The notes below the pieces were generated by a model. That model ran no database searches and had not been told where the DNA came from. It worked only from the letters and a program-made list of their open reading frames with translations. A program made the position numbers and the translations under genes. From assembly GCA_964016885.1 (NCBI GenBank), contig CAXHJY010001537.1, positions 1-60,274 on the forward strand: a stretch of 60,274 bases of DNA. Reading direction: 5' to 3'. How positions within the stretch are numbered: the first letter of the stretch is position 1; the number at the start of each line of letters is the position of its first letter. The stretch comes from Eledone cirrhosa. Its lineage: Eukaryota. Positions 7,442 to 60,250 of the stretch are shown in pieces.

Positions 7442-7995
7442 GTAAATATTTATATTATATTTTTTAATGTATTTTGAAAAATTGATTGAATTTTACTTGT
7501 TCTGCTTATCTTAATATTAAAGTTCTGGTGTATCAAATTAACACCATTGAACAACCTTGAATCATAGACAACCTATGTATTTCTAGGGGTACCTAGTATC
7601 CCTGGACATATTAACTTCTACCTTTTCCTCCGTCCGTTGAGAACAAATCTGTTGCTCTACTTGGCTGCTATTTTTTTAGTAGTAATTGTAGACAGCAAGT
7701 ATTTGATTTTCCCGCTTTTACTTCGGTCCAGTTTACATACGGGTCACTTTTACGACCTTTCAGACCTTTATTAGCTGGCAGGAGGTTGTATATTTTGTCG
7801 TTCCTGGGACGTTTAGCCCTAGGAAGGGAAAATGCTTCTCTGATGAGCTTTGGTTTTCCATCATAAATCCATCGGATTTATGAGGTTTTACAAAGCGAAA
7901 CTGATCAGTAAGGGCCACTAGAAGAGGTAAATATTTATATTATATTTTTTAATGTATTTTGAAAAATTGATTGAATTTTACTTGTTCTGCTTATC

Positions 7996-8038: not shown

Positions 8039-8040
<2 letters not shown>

Positions 8041-8236
8041 CGAAGGAAATGTGGTAAGGAACCAGATGGACCATAACGCATCAAAGTACTCAATACTTAG
8101 GGTAGTAGAGTACTTAGGAACGAGTAGGACCCCGACGGCTGAGCTCAAGCCGTTTCGACGGCTAATTGTGGAGTAATTCTAGTCCAGAATTAGCCGTCGA
8201 AACGGCTTGAGCTCATCCGTCGGGGTCCTACTCGTT

Positions 8237-8240
<4 letters not shown>
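8039..8240. mobile_element. Fold-back element carrying two inverted HHR 3' halves (family B)
   Basis: Arms 8115-8167 / 8188-8240; GAAA-cggc..gccg-TC-ggggt on both strands; same family at 10571-10727 and 36591-36783, with a diverged relative at ~7190-7395. Confidence 0.75.
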
Positions 8241-8301
<61 letters not shown>

Positions 8302-9040
8302 CTCTTGATTTGGCCAGAGATGAATATTTCCAGATATCTTTTAAGTGTAACTTTCCGTATTTATTATTACTATGAAATATTGATTGTTATTCTGGTATCA
8401 TATCTCTGTTTTTAGCCTAACAAAATACCTATATGCGTGTATAAATAATACATGCATATTTTTTTTTTTTTAAATCTAATTGAGTTCTTCACACGCAAGG
8501 TTAAAATTATTGAAAAAATTAATTGACCCGCGTGCATATTATTTTATTATGTTTCGCGATGACCTCCCTTTTCCGCTTGAGGACAGTGTGAAATTTCTCA
8601 TTCTGAGACTGCTGGAATTTCAAATTTGGCGGTCATTCTGATACGGAGAGGGACCATCGCTAGACATTGAATATTGAATATCGGTAAGAAAGTTTTTTTA
8701 TATCGATGTTTGACGGGCATCCACTGATGATTTATAAGTGCCCACCTGCATATATTCCTAAGGACTTTGTGCAGGCTTCTACATAACCTGGACACATTTT
8801 TCCCAACTTGTAGAAAACTTATAATGAAACAATTGTTTAGAAAGGGAGATGTATTTTAATTGTCTCATATAAAACAATACAACTGGCTATCCGCAAAATA
8901 CATATAGTTAGCACCCCAAACGTAAAATTTGGATTATACTAAGGTATATCCTAATGTTTGTTGAGTGAGATGGAAACCAGTCAGAGTATAGCTTAAAGCT
9001 TTCTCTGTTAATGTATTAAATATATATATATATATTTCAG

Positions 9041-9091
9041 GGCTTCTTGATGATCTCTCCCGAATGAAACAGTTCTAGTCCTGTAGAAGCC
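9041..9091 (+). ncRNA. Hammerhead ribozyme (family C), C3->U
   Basis: ggcttc-TTGATGA-..-GAAA-cag ttctagtc ctg-TA-gaagcc; 6-bp stem I. Confidence 0.65.
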
Positions 9092-9317
9092 ATTTCTATA
9101 TTATATATGTGTGTGTATGTGTGTGCGTGTGTGTGTGTGTGTGTGTATGTGTGTGTGTGATTGTAGACACCTGACCATTTTTGCAGATCTCACTAATGAG
9201 TACCCATTGTCTGCTTGGAATAAATGAACCTTCACCTTAGGATTGCCTCTCAGTGTGTTTGTGTTTGTCTATAGGTTCTTAGCGTGAATTTACTTCTGCC
9301 TTTGTATAATTATGTAT

Positions 9318-9408: not shown

Positions 9409-9545
9409 TGTATTTTTCTCTAAATATAGTTTTTAAAGAATCCCCTTTCTTTAAATCATTCAACCAATGACCTTCAACCATCCCAATCACCAACCTCTCC
9501 TACCACCAGAAAATGTATAAATACCACCATATTACATTGACAGTC

Positions 9546-9597
9546 GGCTTTCCTGATGATTTCTCCCGAATTAAATAGGTCTAGTCCTGTAGAAGCC
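9546..9597 (+). ncRNA. Hammerhead ribozyme (family C), GAAA->TAAA decayed
   Basis: ggctttc-CTGATGA-tttctcccgaat-TAAA-..ctg-TA-gaagcc; upstream flank shared with 39530-39661. Confidence 0.6.
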
Positions 9598-9627
9598 ATT
9601 TCTAACTCTCTCTCTCTCTCTCTCTAG

Positions 9628-10570: not shown

Positions 10571-10727
10571 ATAGGAACATGTTAGACCCCGACGGCAGAG
10601 CTCAAGCCGTTTCGACGTCTATTTAACGGCTTGAGCTCTGCCGTCGGGCTCTAACATTTTCCTATTACCCACTCTCTACTACCCTAAGTTTTGAGTGCTA
10701 TGGTGCGTTATGTTATTCTAATTCTTT
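10571..10727. mobile_element. Fold-back element, family B
   Basis: Arms 10571-10611 / 10625-10665; homologous to 8039-8240. Confidence 0.75.
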
Positions 10728-14843: not shown

Positions 14844-14935
14844 GTAATTCCGTCGGAAAGGTCCAGGAAAAAAGAGTGCTCTATGTAGGTTACAGAGCTT
14901 ATTAGTTATGTAATAAACAACATAAGATAATTATT

Positions 14936-14991
14936 TCATTTACCAGTGGTTTCTTGAGAGCAAAGAAATCTGCTTTCAGTCGTCAGAATGA
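14936..14991 (-). ncRNA. Hammerhead ribozyme (family E)
   Basis: Reverse complement of 15076-15131 with few changes. Confidence 0.8.
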
Positions 14992-15075
14992 AAAAATCCT
15001 GGTGTTTTTATTGAATGTGGATGTGTGTGTTTATATATTTATAAATCCACATTCAATAAAAACACCAGGATTTTT

Positions 15076-15131
15076 TCATTCTGACGACTGAAAGCAGATT
15101 TGTTTGCTTTCAAGAAACCACTGGTAAATGA
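15076..15131 (+). ncRNA. Hammerhead ribozyme (family E)
   Basis: tcatt-CTGACGA-ctgaaagcaga tttgt ttgctttcaa-GAAA-ccactgg-TA-aatga. Confidence 0.82.
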
Positions 15132-15254
15132 TATAATTATCTTATGTTGTTTATTACATAACTAATATATATATATATATATATATATATTAGTTATGTA
15201 ACATAAGATAATTATATTAAATGATATAATTATCTTATGTTGTTTATTACATAA

Positions 15255-15354
<100 letters not shown>

Positions 15355-18541: not shown

Positions 18542-18551
<10 letters not shown>

Positions 18552-18945
18552 TAAACGGAATAGAAAATGCTGACAAATTGTTCACAGTTGAAAAATGGTT
18601 TAATTAGGAATAAAAGAGTATTAGTGATTGTATGGGTTAGTATTCAGTTGTGGTTTTAAGTTTTTAAGTTTTTACCGGTTGCGCATTTCTAAATGCTTTT
18701 CAAAAATAATTTTGAGATAGAGTGTCCGTGCTGTTTGCTCTGATCAGAGCAAACAGCACGGACACTCTATCTCAAAATTATTTTTGAAAAGCATTTAGAA
18801 ATGCGCAACCGGTAAAAACTTAAAAACTTAAAACCACAACTGAATACTAACCCATACAATCACTAATACTCTTTTATTCCTAATTAAACCATTTTTCAAC
18901 TGTGAACAATTTGTCAGCATTTTCTATTCCGTTTACCAATATATA
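18542..18945. repeat. Spacer-less palindrome with 202-bp arms
   Basis: Centre ctctga|tcagag at 18743/18744; arms read as reverse complements by eye. Confidence 0.92.
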
Positions 18946-29254: not shown

Positions 29255-29496
29255 TTAAGTTGTTAAACAATATTCGATGATTATGTCAAAGAATGAGTTT
29301 TACAGTAGATTGGAAGCACTCAACGTAAAAAGGATTTTCAGGAGGAGTTATTAATATTAAAATATAAGTATTAATAAAATACATGTTCTTTCGATCAATT
29401 ACATTTTATTATACATATTTAGGATGTACAACAGTACATACAGAAATATGTATAATAAAATTGATCAAAAGAACATCTATTTTATTAATACTTATA

Positions 29497-29505
<9 letters not shown>
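29255..29505. mobile_element. Fold-back of the family A2 PLE tail, centred on HHR stem II
   Basis: Homologous to 25182-25345; arms ~29354-29420 / 29443-29505, each with (G)AAA-tatgta-TA-ataaaa. Confidence 0.75.
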
Positions 29506-29595
<90 letters not shown>

Positions 29596-29716
29596 AGGTG
29601 AGTTTTATTGTAGTACAATAAAGCAATGCAGATATCGGATAAGAAGCACTCTGCAGTTTGTAGGACTGGAGTATACATAATATATAAGATCAAAAGATGG
29701 TTAAAAGAGTTCCATG

Positions 29717-29787
29717 TATTTTATTATGCGCATTTCAAAAACAAATATCATCATGCAATAACATTTGTGTTTTCATCAGATAAAATA
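29717..29787 (-). ncRNA. Hammerhead ribozyme (family A3)
   Basis: Reverse complement of 29889-29959. Confidence 0.85.
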
Positions 29788-29888
29788 GGAAGACATGATA
29801 TGAAGGTTAAAAAACACTTGTGGATAGTGCAGTTGATTTAAAACTCCACTATCCACAAGTGTGTTTTAACCTTCATATCATGTCTTCC

Positions 29889-29959
29889 TATTTTATCTGA
29901 TGAAAACACAAATGTTATTGCATGATGATATTTGTTTTTGAAATGCGCATAATAAAATA
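29889..29959 (+). ncRNA. Hammerhead ribozyme (family A3)
   Basis: tattttat-CTGATGA-aaacacaaatgttatt..gatatttgttttt-GAAA-tgcgca-TA-ataaaata; 8-bp stem I; palindromic stem III. Confidence 0.85.
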
Positions 29960-30142
29960 CATGGAACTCTTTTAACCATCTTTTGATCTTATATATTATG
30001 TATATATATATATATACACACAGCCATGGCGTGAAAGCGATTTACCAACAATCAGAAGAGTAAGAAAAAACAACAGAAGCTGAGAAAGAAAAGAATGAAA
30101 AACGACACACTAAGGAAGCACACGTGATAGGAGAGAAGTAAC

Positions 30143-36275: not shown

Positions 36276-36783
<508 letters not shown>

Positions 36784-36895
36784 ATATATATATATACATA
36801 TATACATACTCATACATCATCTTACAGAACTATACATCACCGCCGCATGTACACACTCACACACAAACACTCATCATATCATACATATACGAATG

Positions 36896-38407: not shown

Positions 38408-38724
38408 AGACTATATATATATATATATATTTATATCTGTATTTTTAACTGTTAGTCAATCAAAGATATACATCGATTGCCAAATAAATTAACTATGGAG
38501 ATATAAAAGATTCAGAAGCAAAAACCAACCAAACAGTGAGTGTGTTCCGTTATTATTTCTGGCAATATTATTACAATATGACCCTCCCCAAGTATAACAA
38601 TATATATATATATGTATACATATTTCGTATCTCCAAAGAAATACGGTTTTAGGAAACCGTAGCTATGAAAACACCGGGGGGGGGGTCTAACGCCCTCTGA
38701 TGTCCAGCAGAAGCAAGGGGGACA

Positions 38725-38768
38725 AGCTTCTATGCATTTCAGGCTTAACTGGCCCTCGTCAGGACGGT
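38725..38768 (-). ncRNA. Hammerhead ribozyme (family F)
   Basis: accgtc-CTGACGA-gggc cagttaa gcct-GAAA-tgca-TA-gaagct. Confidence 0.75.
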
Positions 38769-39134
38769 CCCTTCCACCGCTTGCGACTGCTGGACTAGAA
38801 GACAGCCGAGAATATATACTTTTCTCGTCTGTGTAAATGAGGTGATTAATCTCATTTGCATATGAAGCTGCATAAGTTGGCTCAACTTATAATAAAAAAG
38901 AAATAGGATTTCGATTCAAACATAGCTAAAACCGTATTTCTTTAGAGATACGAAATATTTATACATATTGTATAAAGCTATGCTTGAAGCGAAATCCTAT
39001 TTCTTTTTTATTATAAGTTGAGCCAACTTATGCAGCTTCATATGCAGATGAGATTAATCACCTCATTTACACAGACGAGAAAAGTATATAATCTCGCCTG
39101 TCTTCTAGTCCAGTAGTCGCAAGCGGTGGGAGGG

Positions 39135-39178
39135 ACCGTCCTGGCGAAGGCCAGTTAAGCCTGAAATGCATAGACGGT
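39135..39178 (+). ncRNA. Hammerhead ribozyme (family F), A6->G
   Basis: accgtc-CTGGCGA-aggc cagttaa gcct-GAAA-tgca-TA-gacggt; perfect 6-bp stem I. Confidence 0.75.
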
Positions 39179-39610
39179 TGTCCCCCCCCCCCCTTTGCTT
39201 CTGCTGGACATGACCAGAGGGCGTTAGCCTCCCGGTGTTTGCATAGCTACGGCTTCCTAAAACCGTATTTCTTTGGAGATACGAAATATTTATACATTTT
39301 GTATAAAGCTCTGCTTGAAGCGAAATCCTATTTCTTTTATATATATATAAATATAAATTCAGCGAGAATCGCATGTCGGCGGGTATATATATGTATATAT
39401 ATATTTATTTATTTATTTATCCTGGGTTAGATCGGGGGTCACCACAGTAAGTAAGGTACACAATACATTATATAAATATAATAGTATAACCTATATTAAA
39501 TATGTATACTCTGCTTTGTATTGAGTACCTTACAACCTCCACCCATCCCAATCATCACCCCATCCTACCACGAGAAAAGATATAAATACCACCATATTAC
39601 TTGGACAGTC

Positions 39611-45975: not shown

Positions 45976-47038
45976 GTAAAAGAAATCAAAGAACGCTTAC
46001 ATACTCAAACAGCTTTTATTTGCTGACAATGTTTCATACATACCGTTGGGCAGGAATCATCAGAGCCTAATAAACAACTGTGTTGAGTATAAGCTCTACC
46101 AAGCTTAGTCACACAAACTATTGGAATACAATAGAGGGTAAAAATAGGGAGATCGGAGATGGCGAATAAAAAGAGATACATGGGTTGTTAAATGCTAGGG
46201 TACAGGCAGATTGTTTCAAGATGCAGATGCAGAAAGCCCAAGGTGATTTTAATCCTCGCCAAAGTATACGGGCTTTCTGGAGGTACCTTAAGAACCTCTT
46301 AGTATTTATATAACTATTAGTTACGGAGATCTTATTCACTTGTTATATATAGTGACCTGCGCTTAACTTCCTCTGGCTTTTTATGTGCTTAAAACCTTTT
46401 CTTTCTTTTTTTTCTTTTTTTTTTCTTTTTCTTTTCTTTTTCTTTTTCTTTTCTTTTTTCTTTTTTCTTTTTTCTTTTTTCTTTTTTCTTTTTTCTTTTT
46501 TCTTTTTTCTTTTTTCTTTTATTTTCTTTTTTCTTTCTTTTTTCTTTCTTTTTTCTTTCTTTTTTCTTTCTTTTTTCTTTCTTTTTTTCTTTCTTTTTTC
46601 TTTCTTTTTTCTTTCTTTTTTCTTTCTTTTTTCCTTCTTTTTTCTTTCTTTTTTTTTTCTTCTTAAAATTGTTTATCTTTTTTATTTATTATTTATCTCT
46701 TTATATTTTCTTCCTTTTACTTTTTTATCATATGTTTTAGCCATTGTTTATACTTTTTGCTTTTGTGTGCCATCACTTGCATCTGCATCTTGAAAAATCT
46801 GCCTGTACCCTAGCATTTAACAACCCCAACATGTATCTCTCCTTATTCGCCATGTCCGATCTCCCTATTTTTACCCTCTAATATATTCCAATTGTTTGTG
46901 TGACTAAGCTTGGTAGAGCTTATACTCAACACTGTGTTTTTGTTTATTAAGCTCTGATGATTCCTGCCTAACAGTATAGATGAAACATTGTCAGCAAATA
47001 AAAACTGTTTGAGTATGTAAGCGTTCTTTGATTTCTTT

Positions 47039-50218: not shown

Positions 50219-52326
50219 ATTCGTGAGTGAATAATAACTGTTTCTAGTTTTGGCACAAGGCCAGCAATTATTCCAGTGTATTACTGGTACTTTATTTTAT
50301 CGACCCCGTAAGGATGAAAGGCAAAGTTAACCTCGGCGGGATTTGAACTCAGTCCGTAAAGGGGCGTAACTGTGCTGCAAAGCATGGCGCCCGACCCTCT
50401 ACCGATACTGCCAATCCACCAATCTTAAAGTTCTTTTTACTGTGGTTTTTTTTTTTTTTTTGCTTTTGAAGTGTGTATACAAGATAACCCCGGCGGGTTT
50501 TAAACTCAGAACGTAAAGGGCCATAACAATGTGTTGCAAAACATGGTGTCTAACGCTCTGCCGATACTGCCAATCCACATGATAATGGTTTCTTATATAG
50601 GCACAAGGCCAGCAATTTCGGGGGAGGGGAAAATCGATTAAATCGACTCCAGTGCTTTACTGGTACTTTATTTTATAGACCCCTTAAGGATGAAAGGTAA
50701 AGTTAACCTCGGCGGGATTAATAATATTATATCATATTATTATATTAATAAGGGTGGTGGATTGGCAGTATCGGTAGAGGGCCGGACGCCATGCTTTGCA
50801 GCAAAGGATTACGGCCCTTTATGGTCTGAGTTCAAATCCCGCCGAGGTTAACTTTACCTTTCATACTTACGGGGTCGATAAAATAAAGTACGAGTAATAC
50901 ACTGTGTAATTGCTGACCTTGTGCCAAAAGTAGAAACAATTATATTATTATATTAATAAAGGCGATGGATTCGCAGTATCGGTAGAGGGTCGGACAGCAA
51001 AGAGCTTCGGCCCTTTAAGGTCTGAGTTCAAATCCCGCTGAGGTTAACTTTGCCTTTCATCCTTACGGGGTCGATAAAATAAAGTACCTCTAATACAGTG
51101 GGATAATTGCTGGCCTTGTGCCAAAAGTAGAAACAATTATTAGTAATAATTAGTCAGGTACAGAGGATATAGGACTTGTTCGATGATGTAGTCAGGTGCA
51201 CTATATAGGACTTGTTCGATGATGTAGTCAGGTGCACTATATAGGACTTGTTCGATGATGTAGTCAGGTGCACTATATAGGACTTGTTCGATGATGTAGA
51301 CAGGTGCACTATATAGGATTGTTCGATGATGTAGTCAGGTGCACTATATAGGACTTGTTCGATGATGTAGTCAGGTGCACTATATAGGACTTGTTCGATG
51401 ATGTAGTCAGGTGCACTATATAGGACTTGTTTGATAATTGTTTCTACTTTTGGCACAAGGTCAGCAATTACACAGTGTATTACTGGTACTTTATTTTATC
51501 GACACCGTAAGTATGAAAGGTAAAGTTAACCTCGGCGGGATTTGAACTCAGACCATAAAGGGCCGTAATCCTTTGCTGCAAAGCATGGCGTCCGGCCCTC
51601 TACCGATACTGCCAATCCACCACCCTTATTAATATAATAATATGATATAATATTATTAATCCCGCCGAGGTTAACTTTACCTTTCATCCTTAAGGGGTCT
51701 ATAAAATAAAGTACCAGTAAAGCACTGGGGTCGATTTAATCGATTTTCCCCTCCCCCGAAATTGCTGGCCTTGTGCCTATATAAGAAACCATTATCATGT
51801 GGATTGGCAGTATCGGCAGAGCGTTAGACACCATGCTTTGCAACACATAGTTATGGCCCTTTACGTTCTAAGTTTAAAACCTGCCGAGGTAATCTTGTAT
51901 ACACACTTGTATACAACAGCAAAAAAAAAAAAAAACAGTAAAAAGAACTTTAAGATAAATTCTGGTTTATATGCATTATTGAGGGCGGTGTATTGGCAGT
52001 ATCGGTAGAGGGTCAGACGCCGTGCTTTGCAGCAAAGAGTTACGGCCCTTTATGGTCTGAGTTCAAATCCCGCCGAGGTTAACTTTGCCTTTCATCCCTA
52101 CGGGGTCGATAAAATAAAGTACCAGTAATACACTGGGATAATTTCTGGCCTTGTGCCAAAAGTAGAAACAATTATTTAAATTCTGAGTTCAAATCCCGCC
52201 GATGTTAACTTCGCCTTTCATCCTTTCGTGGTCGATAAAATAAAGCACCAGTAATACACTGGGGTAATGGCTGGCCTTGTGTCAAAAGTAGAAACAATTA
52301 TTATAATATTATCATTCACTCACGAA
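50219..52326. mobile_element. Cluster of ~10 SINE copies/fragments arranged as a large inverted duplication
   Basis: 50422-50943 is nearly the reverse complement of 51434-51957; outer ends ATTCGTGAGTGAAT / ATTCACTCACGAAT. Confidence 0.88.
51151..51433. repeat. 36-bp tandem repeat, ~7.8 units
   Basis: TAGTCAGGTGCACTATATAGGACTTGTTCGATGATG at 51189, 51225 and onward. Confidence 0.95.
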
Positions 52327-58028: not shown

Positions 58029-58319
58029 ATATAATAATAAATATATAAACGGAAACAATGAAACGAAATTTCATTTCTCACTCTTAGTACTGCTGTTACT
58101 TAAATATAAGTATGTATACGTACATACATATATGTATACAGACGTACAGTAGTATGTATATATATATATATATATACATACATGCACATACATATATATG
58201 TACGTATGGATTCACCGAACATTTATTATAATGCTCGGTGTGTTTGTAAACAAACATCCCGTATTAAGCCGCAGTGTCTAGCAACCATCGTTGCTCGTTT
58301 GTTCAACACTGACAAAGGA

Positions 58320-58362
58320 ACACTGTACTACTTTCAAGCTTATTAGCTATCGTCAGCAACGT
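58320..58362 (-). ncRNA. Hammerhead ribozyme (family H)
   Basis: acgttg-CTGACGA-tagct aata agctt-GAAA-gtag-TA-cagtgt. Confidence 0.72.
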
Positions 58363-58616
58363 ATACCTTCCTGCCAGATGATTGGACGTGTGAAAGTATA
58401 TACTTTCCTTATGCATATTAACGGCTGAGCAGCCTAATTTGCATATCGAGTGGATTAATCGAGTGGGAAATGAAATTTCGTTTCATTTTTTCCGTTTATC
58501 GTTTTCGGTACCCCGGCCGATTAACCCACTCGATATGCAAATTAGGCTGCTCAGCCGTTAATATACATAAGGAAAGTATATACTTTCACACGTTCAATCA
58601 TCTGGCAGGAAGGTAT

Positions 58617-58659
58617 ACGTTGCTGACGATAGCTAATAAGCTTGAAACTAGTACAGCGT
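58617..58659 (+). ncRNA. Hammerhead ribozyme (family H)
   Basis: acgttg-CTGACGA-tagct aata agctt-GAAA-ctag-TA-cagcgt. Confidence 0.8.
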
Positions 58660-58798
58660 TCCTTTGTCAGTGTTGAACAAACGAGCAACGATGGTTGCTA
58701 GACACTACGACTTAATACGGGATGTTTGTTTAAAAACACACTGAGCATTATAATAAATGTTCGGTGAATCCATACGTACATATATATATGTGTGCATG

Positions 58799-58832
<34 letters not shown>

Positions 58833-58924
58833 TACTACTGTACGTCTGTATACATATATGTATGTACGTGTACACACTTATAAATAAATATATAATATAT
58901 ATATATGTATATATTATTCTTGTG

Positions 58925-59640: not shown

Positions 59641-59868
59641 TAATTTTGGTTGGAGTTCATTTATGTTTATATTAATTAAAATTAAATAATCAGTTGTGAA
59701 ACGCGCGTCACCAATCAATGAATGTAATGGAGGAGTAACCCCACGTCCTTGTTATCTTATTTCACTATATTACACTCTGTATAGCTCTACACCTCGACAC
59801 AGAAGTGAACCTAAACATCGAGTGCTCACCCGGGTAAACCTGCAGTAACTCCAAGTTACACTCGCTGG

Positions 59869-60250
<382 letters not shown>

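Follow-up and report, generated by a model that had tools for sequence, protein, structure and literature searches.

Short head-to-head copies of Hydra-like Penelope elements in Eledone cirrhosa share fixed outer ends and an inner wall at a likely transcription start

The 60,274-nt stretch of Eledone cirrhosa DNA analysed here (contig CAXHJY010001537.1, hereafter the window) contains short fold-backs in which both strands carry one half of a hammerhead ribozyme, which raises the question of what determines where such a fold-back is centred. The initial annotation proposed that second-strand synthesis is primed by the nascent cDNA folding back on the stem II palindrome, the ribozyme's own hairpin thereby dictating the structure of the insertion. 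An inverted-repeat search of the window identified three pairs of arms assigned to family B (8115-8172/8183-8240, 10571-10611/10625-10665 and 36669-36723/36731-36785) and one pair assigned to family A2 (29354-29400/29459-29505), each of the four fold-backs being situated between (TA)n runs. As the annotation had described, both strands of all four carry the half composed of GAAA, stem III, UH and stem I' (eroded in some arms), and a motif scan found no complete hammerhead within them (8115, 10571, 36669 and 29354), the core being absent. An Rfam scan of the window returned no hammerhead among the matches listed (150 of 206), which included just microsatellite-driven miRNA matches. The features are given below, with family B positions counted from the first base of the tail (0) and A-family positions from the first base after the cleavage site (0).

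8041..8117, minus strand: tail of copy 1 (family B, about 0 to +78), the stretch between the two fixed outer ends, adjoining (TA)n
8118..8176, minus strand: sense arm of copy 1 (about -1 to -60), with the hammerhead 3' half and its 5' end at the wall
8180..8241, plus strand: inverted arm of copy 1 (-59 to +2), ending at the inner fixed end beside (TA)n
8191..8226, plus strand: hammerhead 3' half of the copy 1 inverted arm, from sequence, its pairing partners being present in long copies
8179..8184, plus strand: initiator-like T[TC]AGT[CT] of copy 1, its A at 8181 corresponding to -58; motif kept across B subfamilies, putative start site
10571..10712, plus strand: copy 2, a family B variant, with inverted arm 10571-10624 (+2 to -51) and sense arm from 10625 (-38) into the tail
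29354..29505, minus strand: family A2 fold-back, its two arms meeting at a shared GTAC within the native stem II, core lost
29672..30004, no strand assigned: family A1 fold-back whose arms each contain a complete hammerhead with CTGATGA; its centre lies about 114 nt upstream of the cleavage site
36593..36785, minus strand: copy 3, a family B variant, with tail and sense arm 36593-36730 (+78 to -59) and inverted arm 36730-36785 (-53 to +2)
59698..59870, plus strand: family C copy, truncated near GAAA; the upstream half is present in other copies

Read on the minus strand, the element at 8039-8240 consists of an inverted arm, a junction, a sense arm and an unpaired tail of about 79 nt, in that order. 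Within 8191..8226, the 3' strand of stem II is followed by GAAAC (8199-8203), stem III, GTC (8219-8221) and the 3' strand of stem I, with cleavage predicted after 8221, while the first base of the initiator-like motif at 8179..8184 is junction sequence. Copy 2 is asymmetric, its inverted arm being the longer (to -51, the sense arm starting from -38). The A1 fold-back at 29672..30004 is a counter-example to stem II centring within the window itself.

Several other structures were encountered in the window. A complete hammerhead-like motif of another repeat family lies at 7828-7930 (plus strand), with a 49-nt stem II region, a palindromic stem III and a relative in L205. Two hammerhead-like motifs of a further family (9036-9096 and 9545-9602, plus strand) each end at a TA/TC run, one with a TTGATGA core and one with an eroded GAAA. 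Positions 18542-18945 form a perfect 202-bp palindrome with zero loop, and an inverted-repeat cluster at 50232-52261, with arms of up to 498 nt at 97%, is made of a SINE-like repeat that recurs across the window. Further long fold-backs at 14900-15260, 38610-39340, 46080-46932 and 58116-58863 probably belong to other Penelope-like families.

The origin of the family B arms was traced with the tail alone, for which 40 of 1,032 candidates were scored and 30 fetched, yielding L035, a copy whose arms extend for about 330 and 1,250 nt. Searching with the upstream part of L035 and then fetching larger stretches recovered the parent. Its unit measures about 3.6 kb, contains motifs of a reverse transcriptase (RT) and of an endonuclease and has a long 3' UTR; the genome holds at least 22,540 family B copies (exact matches of a tail 34-mer; the reversed control gave 0). 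Read by eye, L097 and L096 contain YRDDG of the RT followed by a C-terminal VIY..YIG of a GIY-YIG endonuclease; L203 and L207 contain the Hydra-clade RWR and DKT (in place of DKG); and the frames of L102 and L103 contain the CxCX5C linker as CNCPDGSIC, with CxxC as CNLC and CxH as CKH. Insertion into (TA)n is likewise as in the Hydra clade, and Pfam gave 0 hits for the three family B peptides tested. By these motifs family B is a Penelope-like element (PLE) of the RT/GIY-YIG type, predicted to be Hydra-like. In copies that include the start of the ORF the tail is continuous with the 5' UTR and the ATG follows 93 nt past the tail, so that the element begins with the tail. An origin from a MITE or DNA fold-back transposon was ruled out, the arms being the 3' end of an RT element. 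A divergent sister family of B (L121, L074, L042 and L036) has a compensated stem II, its short copies starting near TTAGTT at the equivalent of -58. Copies of different families are often side by side, nested in one (TA)n run (L047, L053, L064, L087 and L148), and an intronless 246-aa Ras-like GTPase frame lies beside a family B insertion in L099 (minus frame).

The hammerhead identity of family B had been proposed from its 3' half, and the long copies bear it out: they read ACCCC-YTGANAA-G, GAAAC at -40, stem III, a GTC ending at -18 and GGGGT, and the stems I, II and III of a type I hammerhead can be drawn around the core with 88% of cells paired. Stem II of the long parents pairs -96 to -88 with -48 to -41 across a loop of about 40 nt. 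The three compensated pairs all lie in stem II, and covariation exceeded that of 500/500 shuffles, a modest support given that the alignment holds 11 related sequences including the divergent sister family. Family B is thus predicted to carry a type I hammerhead with its GAAA and its NUH triplet in place (GAAAC..GTC). The expected upstream sequence acccc-CTGANGA-gacggct was not borne out, given the YTGANAA core and long loop II; canonical CUGANGA occurred in 0/67 long arms, most of which read CTGAGAA (a C3-A8 mismatch, the commonest subfamily), with six reading TTGANAA (U3-A8 covariation). The U3-A8 form is described as a PLE variant, from Cercyon, in the accessible text of PMC4209133. Five of 20 ORF-linked upstream pieces (L203, L208, L209, L215 and L219) start at -15 to -6, just 3' of the predicted cut at -17, an indirect sign that hints at hammerhead cleavage in vivo.

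To locate the inner ends, the first 90 of 100 listed places (out of the 22,540 exact matches) were taken unselected, 30 with 1.5-kb flanks and 60 with 3.6 kb upstream; fold-backs found with a query spanning the centre were left out of the counts. An adjacent inverted arm was called in 67 of the 90 copies, two being spurious by their coordinates (L118 and L120). Sense arms ended within a 13-nt interval at -51 to -63, just upstream of the 3' strand of stem II, in 51/90 copies, and inverted arms did so in 46/67. Against a uniform spread over -1 to -103, this interval held 51/80 sense ends (p about 1e-26) and 46/62 inverted ends (p about 1e-28), and the same wall was present in subfamilies B1, B2 and B4, each of which has its own long parents. 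Inversion centres clustered at -50 to -62 (42/65), with 1/65 at the native stem II apex (-63 to -73). The position is therefore far from random in family B, but the annotation's placing of the centre exactly on the stem II hairpin was not confirmed. The core was absent from 81/90 copies and kept on either arm in just 9/90; likewise, 9/90 sense arms reached the 5' strand of stem II at -88, the other 81 stopping short. As this strand lies about 30 nt past the point where the arms stop, these cDNAs cannot snap back on stem II, and the "stem II hairpin" of the family B copies in the window is produced by the inversion, not a native hairpin.

The outer end of the inverted arm lay at 0, +2 or +4 in 55/67 copies and at +78 in two typical cases. 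The inner ends vary independently, the inverted arm being longer by at least 5 nt in 22 copies, the sense arm in 15, and the two agreeing within 4 nt in 30 (67 copies); in two extreme cases a sense arm of a few nucleotides is joined to an inverted arm of 1,058 or 1,443 nt (L163 and L160). Junctions contain microhomology of 0-4 nt or short inserts, some sit on short palindromes, and the native loop sequence is not retained. About 32 distinct junctions were counted among 37 wall-to-wall copies, with a few strings recurring 2-3 times. The two arms agree at subfamily sites in 34/38 copies, some of the four exceptions being alignment slips. The B wall is broad (-52 to -63), with two candidate A residues (-58 and -62).

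Copies that include the ORF behave differently. In the ORF-start set, which comprises the best 30 of 723 candidates rather than a random draw, 0/12 upstream pseudo-LTRs reaching -51 ended at -51 to -63 as against 51/64 in the bulk sample (p 1.7e-7). Of the 18 partner arms, 0-1 ended at the wall. A splice-acceptor origin of the wall was rejected, since many arms keep the AG and no common upstream exon was present. An apparent A>G excess in short arms (10/232) came from junction sequence and disappeared after cleaning.

The concern that the fold-backs might be assembly artefacts was dispelled by RAD data on L035:1501-1900 (raw Illumina reads of three runs and contigs of a fourth), in which strand-switch joints have one end at -48 to -58; these reads are mostly 90-99% alike to L035, and the runs may be from other species than the sequenced genome. 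In the RAD contigs depth drops about 13-fold from -32..-45 to -60..-73. Pile-ups of read ends were set aside, since they fall on AATT sites and could reflect restriction cutting. The fold-backs are not assembly artefacts.

The sister families A1, A2 and A3 have 7,865, 2,965 and 32,907 exact matches, respectively. Among the matches listed, inverted pairs were centred in stem II in 0/19 cases for A1, 1/19 for A2 and 0/19 for A3 (1/57 in total), the centres having been computed by hand from minus/plus pairs no more than 4 kb apart in the first 100 rows. For arm ends, 40 A1 regions (nine of them hand-picked; reference L242, the chimeric L236 having been dropped), 20 A2 regions from the first 30 rows (omitting places already included) and 40 A3 regions from the first 46 rows were used. 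The core was kept in 48/54 A1, 21/27 A2 and 42/44 A3 arms, and arm ends accumulate at an initiator-like TCA that lies 65-95 nt upstream of the core. The A1 wall is at -124 (13/54 arms at -122 to -125; 6/37 without the hand-picked regions), the A2 wall near -103 (6/27 arms at -94 to -103) and the A3 wall at about -138 (12/44 arms within -3 to +6 of the A), each at the A of a TCA-type motif. Centres sampled across the genome do cluster in family B, and all but one of the listed A1, A2 and A3 pairs are centred outside stem II. The A2 copy at 29354 fits the annotation's picture, the native 4-nt loop being retained between its two GTAC strands, yet it is atypical of its family (1/19 listed A2 pairs). 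The lone 3' half at 59698 is real, but the eight other places fetched, of 10 exact matches, all have at least about 65-95 nt of family sequence upstream, and five of the eight have a CCGANGA core. Family C (L332-L339 and window position 59698) has this core with a stem II region of about 60 nt, and most copies start about 88 nt upstream of GAAA, perhaps at a wall of their own.

The short copies have a parent element, two fixed outer ends, a common inner wall in each of four families and junctions that vary. They are probably Hydra-like Penelope insertions formed from double-primed cDNAs that ran off the 5' end of an RNA and were joined head to head. Both cut strands of the (TA)n target would prime cDNAs at the two tail boundaries on a pseudo-LTR/tail RNA (two primers are presumed), both cDNAs would run off the RNA 5' end at the predicted transcription start, and trimming with microhomology-type end joining would link them. 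Asymmetric arms could also come from post-insertion deletions. The wall is likely to represent the predicted transcription start of the pseudo-LTR rather than the ribozyme hairpin. Because the B wall falls inside loop II of the ribozyme, the YUGANAA half is left out, and because the A1, A2 and A3 walls lie upstream of the ribozyme, the core is kept.

Pol II promoters of the Inr/DPE type are marked by an Inr at +1 and the DPE consensus RGWYV near +28. This layout is present in A3, where RGWYV (DPE-like) occurs at +27/+28 in 12/12 of the long copies with a located motif (of 13 tried, against a background of 0.6% per position), with a GTAYGT splice donor at +41 to +50. In family B, T[TC]AGT[CT] at -58 is conserved between subfamilies, with an additional TCATTT at -62 in B1. 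Inspection by eye revealed no exact DPE at +28 in B, A1 or A2, which have just the Inr-like motif, and TCA-like motifs are short and common in AT-rich DNA. An alternative B pair (A at -84, AGTCC at +27) was discarded, as it predicts a wall at -84, seen in few copies. A G precedes the A1 wall in 6/10 non-parental cases, as would be expected from copying a cap, with some of these Gs possibly derived from the partner arm; unlike A1, family B gave no clear G signal. Since ORF-bearing B copies skip the wall, an intrinsic RT stop is ruled out and the RNAs that end at it form a separate class. Conversely, start-site RNA crossing a tandem should sometimes give wall-ended ORF copies, and their absence counts against the start-site reading. 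The short RNAs could be transcripts of ORF-bearing parents, or an internal promoter could drive renewed transcription of short copies.

A possible but on balance doubtful joint reading has family B transcription begin within the family's own hammerhead. The transcript would then open with a substrate half (stem II', GAAA, stem III, GUC) that cannot cut itself. The downstream pseudo-LTR, with its catalytic half, could cut it in trans, which would account for the -17 ends of ORF copies while the downstream site is spared; uncut start-site RNAs or re-transcribed wall-length copies would yield, by double priming, tens of thousands of SINE-like fold-backs.

Among the alternatives to double priming, a single cDNA ending at the same RNA 5' end might turn back by way of a few bases, either non-templated or microhomologous, and copy itself as far as the TA at the tail start, with one primer. 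The agreement of the arms at subfamily sites (34/38) and the junctions on short palindromes are in keeping with such self-priming, which has been put forward for junctions of this kind in the accessible text of PMC3846280. It is nevertheless unlikely, as synthesis would have to stop at 0 to +4 in 55/67 copies rather than run through the tail into perfect (TA)n homology, and neither the 22/67 copies with the longer inverted arm nor the joining of few-nucleotide sense arms to inverted arms of 1,058 or 1,443 nt (L163 and L160) fits it.

It is quite unlikely that the fold-backs propagate themselves, with read-through fold-back RNA as template and the loop cut and re-joined at each round, so that the wall is inherited without a promoter. 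This would account for the avoidance of the wall by ORF-bearing copies, and a few junction strings do recur 2-3 times; however, the wall is identical in each B subfamily with its own long parents, junctions are mostly unique, no short-only haplotype was seen among the family B copies compared, the arms have no A>G excess (6/1062 versus 2/711), and no cause is given for A3 walls at Inr/DPE-like spacing.

That the wall is an RNA processing site, or an RT stop induced by protein or structure in loop II, is decidedly improbable: family B does lack an exact DPE and its wall is broad, but long cDNAs pass the site unstopped (0/12) and the A1, A2 and A3 walls lie outside the ribozyme. Finally, snap-back on the native stem II is very improbable and largely refuted as a general rule, since 81/90 B sense arms lack the 5' strand it needs, B junctions do not keep the native loop, 22/67 inverted arms are the longer, 1/57 listed A1/A2/A3 pairs is centred in stem II, and three sister families with canonical cores (kept in 48/54 A1 and 42/44 A3 arms) pile up far upstream of the ribozyme, although it may hold for occasional copies such as that at 29354, with its native loop between both stem strands, and the B wall does lie at the 3' edge of the apical loop predicted for an extended stem II (a weak fold, z 0.56).

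The rule that the ribozyme dictates insertion structure should thus not be carried forward. In its accessible text, PMC8557442 names the formation of PLE inverted ends as unresolved, and the short copies, which number in the tens of thousands, preserve a record of it in the form of two fixed priming ends and, for each family, a single inner wall. Should the wall prove to be a transcription start, PLE promoters could be mapped from insertion ends even where RNA data are lacking, the in vitro finding of two start sites would gain a genomic counterpart, and double priming would become directly testable against self-priming. This reading also predicts many short perfect hairpins across the Eledone cirrhosa genome.

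Parts of this picture are already known, namely truncated copies in inverted orientation that have a tail on one side, promoters in the pseudo-LTR, a pair of RT start sites and the self-priming proposal. In the open-access literature searched (bioRxiv supplements apart), no common inner wall at a start site, start inside a ribozyme or stem II rule was described; self-priming at palindromic junctions had already been proposed for Penelope elements (PMC3846280, accessible text). As described in the accessible text of PMC8557442, the Hydra clade has a C-terminal endonuclease, the motifs RW[KR], DKT, CxCX5C, CxxC and CxH, a (TA)n target and a hammerhead near the 3' end. Family B is alike in motifs, target, hammerhead and an inverted 5'-truncated copy with a tail at one end, and differs in its tail (79 nt versus 30-40 nt), its unit length (about 3.6 kb), its long 3' UTR, its YUGANAA core, its loop II of about 40 nt and its more than 22,000 copies, mostly short fold-backs; the same text describes no fixed inner end.

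In the anole Poseidon element PAc, the available text of PMC11167929 reports a tail continuous with the element start, two in vitro RT start sites that bound it and extension of both target strands. As in family B, two fixed ends bound a tail that is the element start; in that text the inner ends of inverted copies are not mapped or linked to a start site, and the words 'inverted' and 'tail' gave no hits in its three text supplements. The pseudo-LTR promoter of Drosophila virilis Penelope, with Inr, DPE and an intron at +46 (PMC2377424, accessible text), matches the layout of A3, having been mapped by experiment there and predicted here, and the upstream copy there is variably truncated.

The start of a plant retrozyme has been mapped upstream of its hammerhead (PMC12029980, available part). 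For PLE hammerheads and non-LTR retrozymes, opposite-strand hammerhead pairs 100-700 bp apart have been noted (PMC4209133 and bioRxiv 10.64898/2026.07.22.740005, available parts); non-LTR retrozymes are tandem units with a complete hammerhead each, whereas a short B copy consists of one head-to-head unit that lacks the core. Adineta vaga Penelope elements, according to the accessible text of PMC3846280, have head-to-head pseudo-LTRs, palindromes at the junctions, an Inr-like TCACT and microhomology joins. The window families resemble them in the head-to-head arrangement, the palindromes at junctions, the Inr-like motif and the microhomology joins; in A. vaga, self-priming on an antisense template was put forward for few copies, whereas two sense-RNA-templated cDNAs ending at one wall are favoured here.
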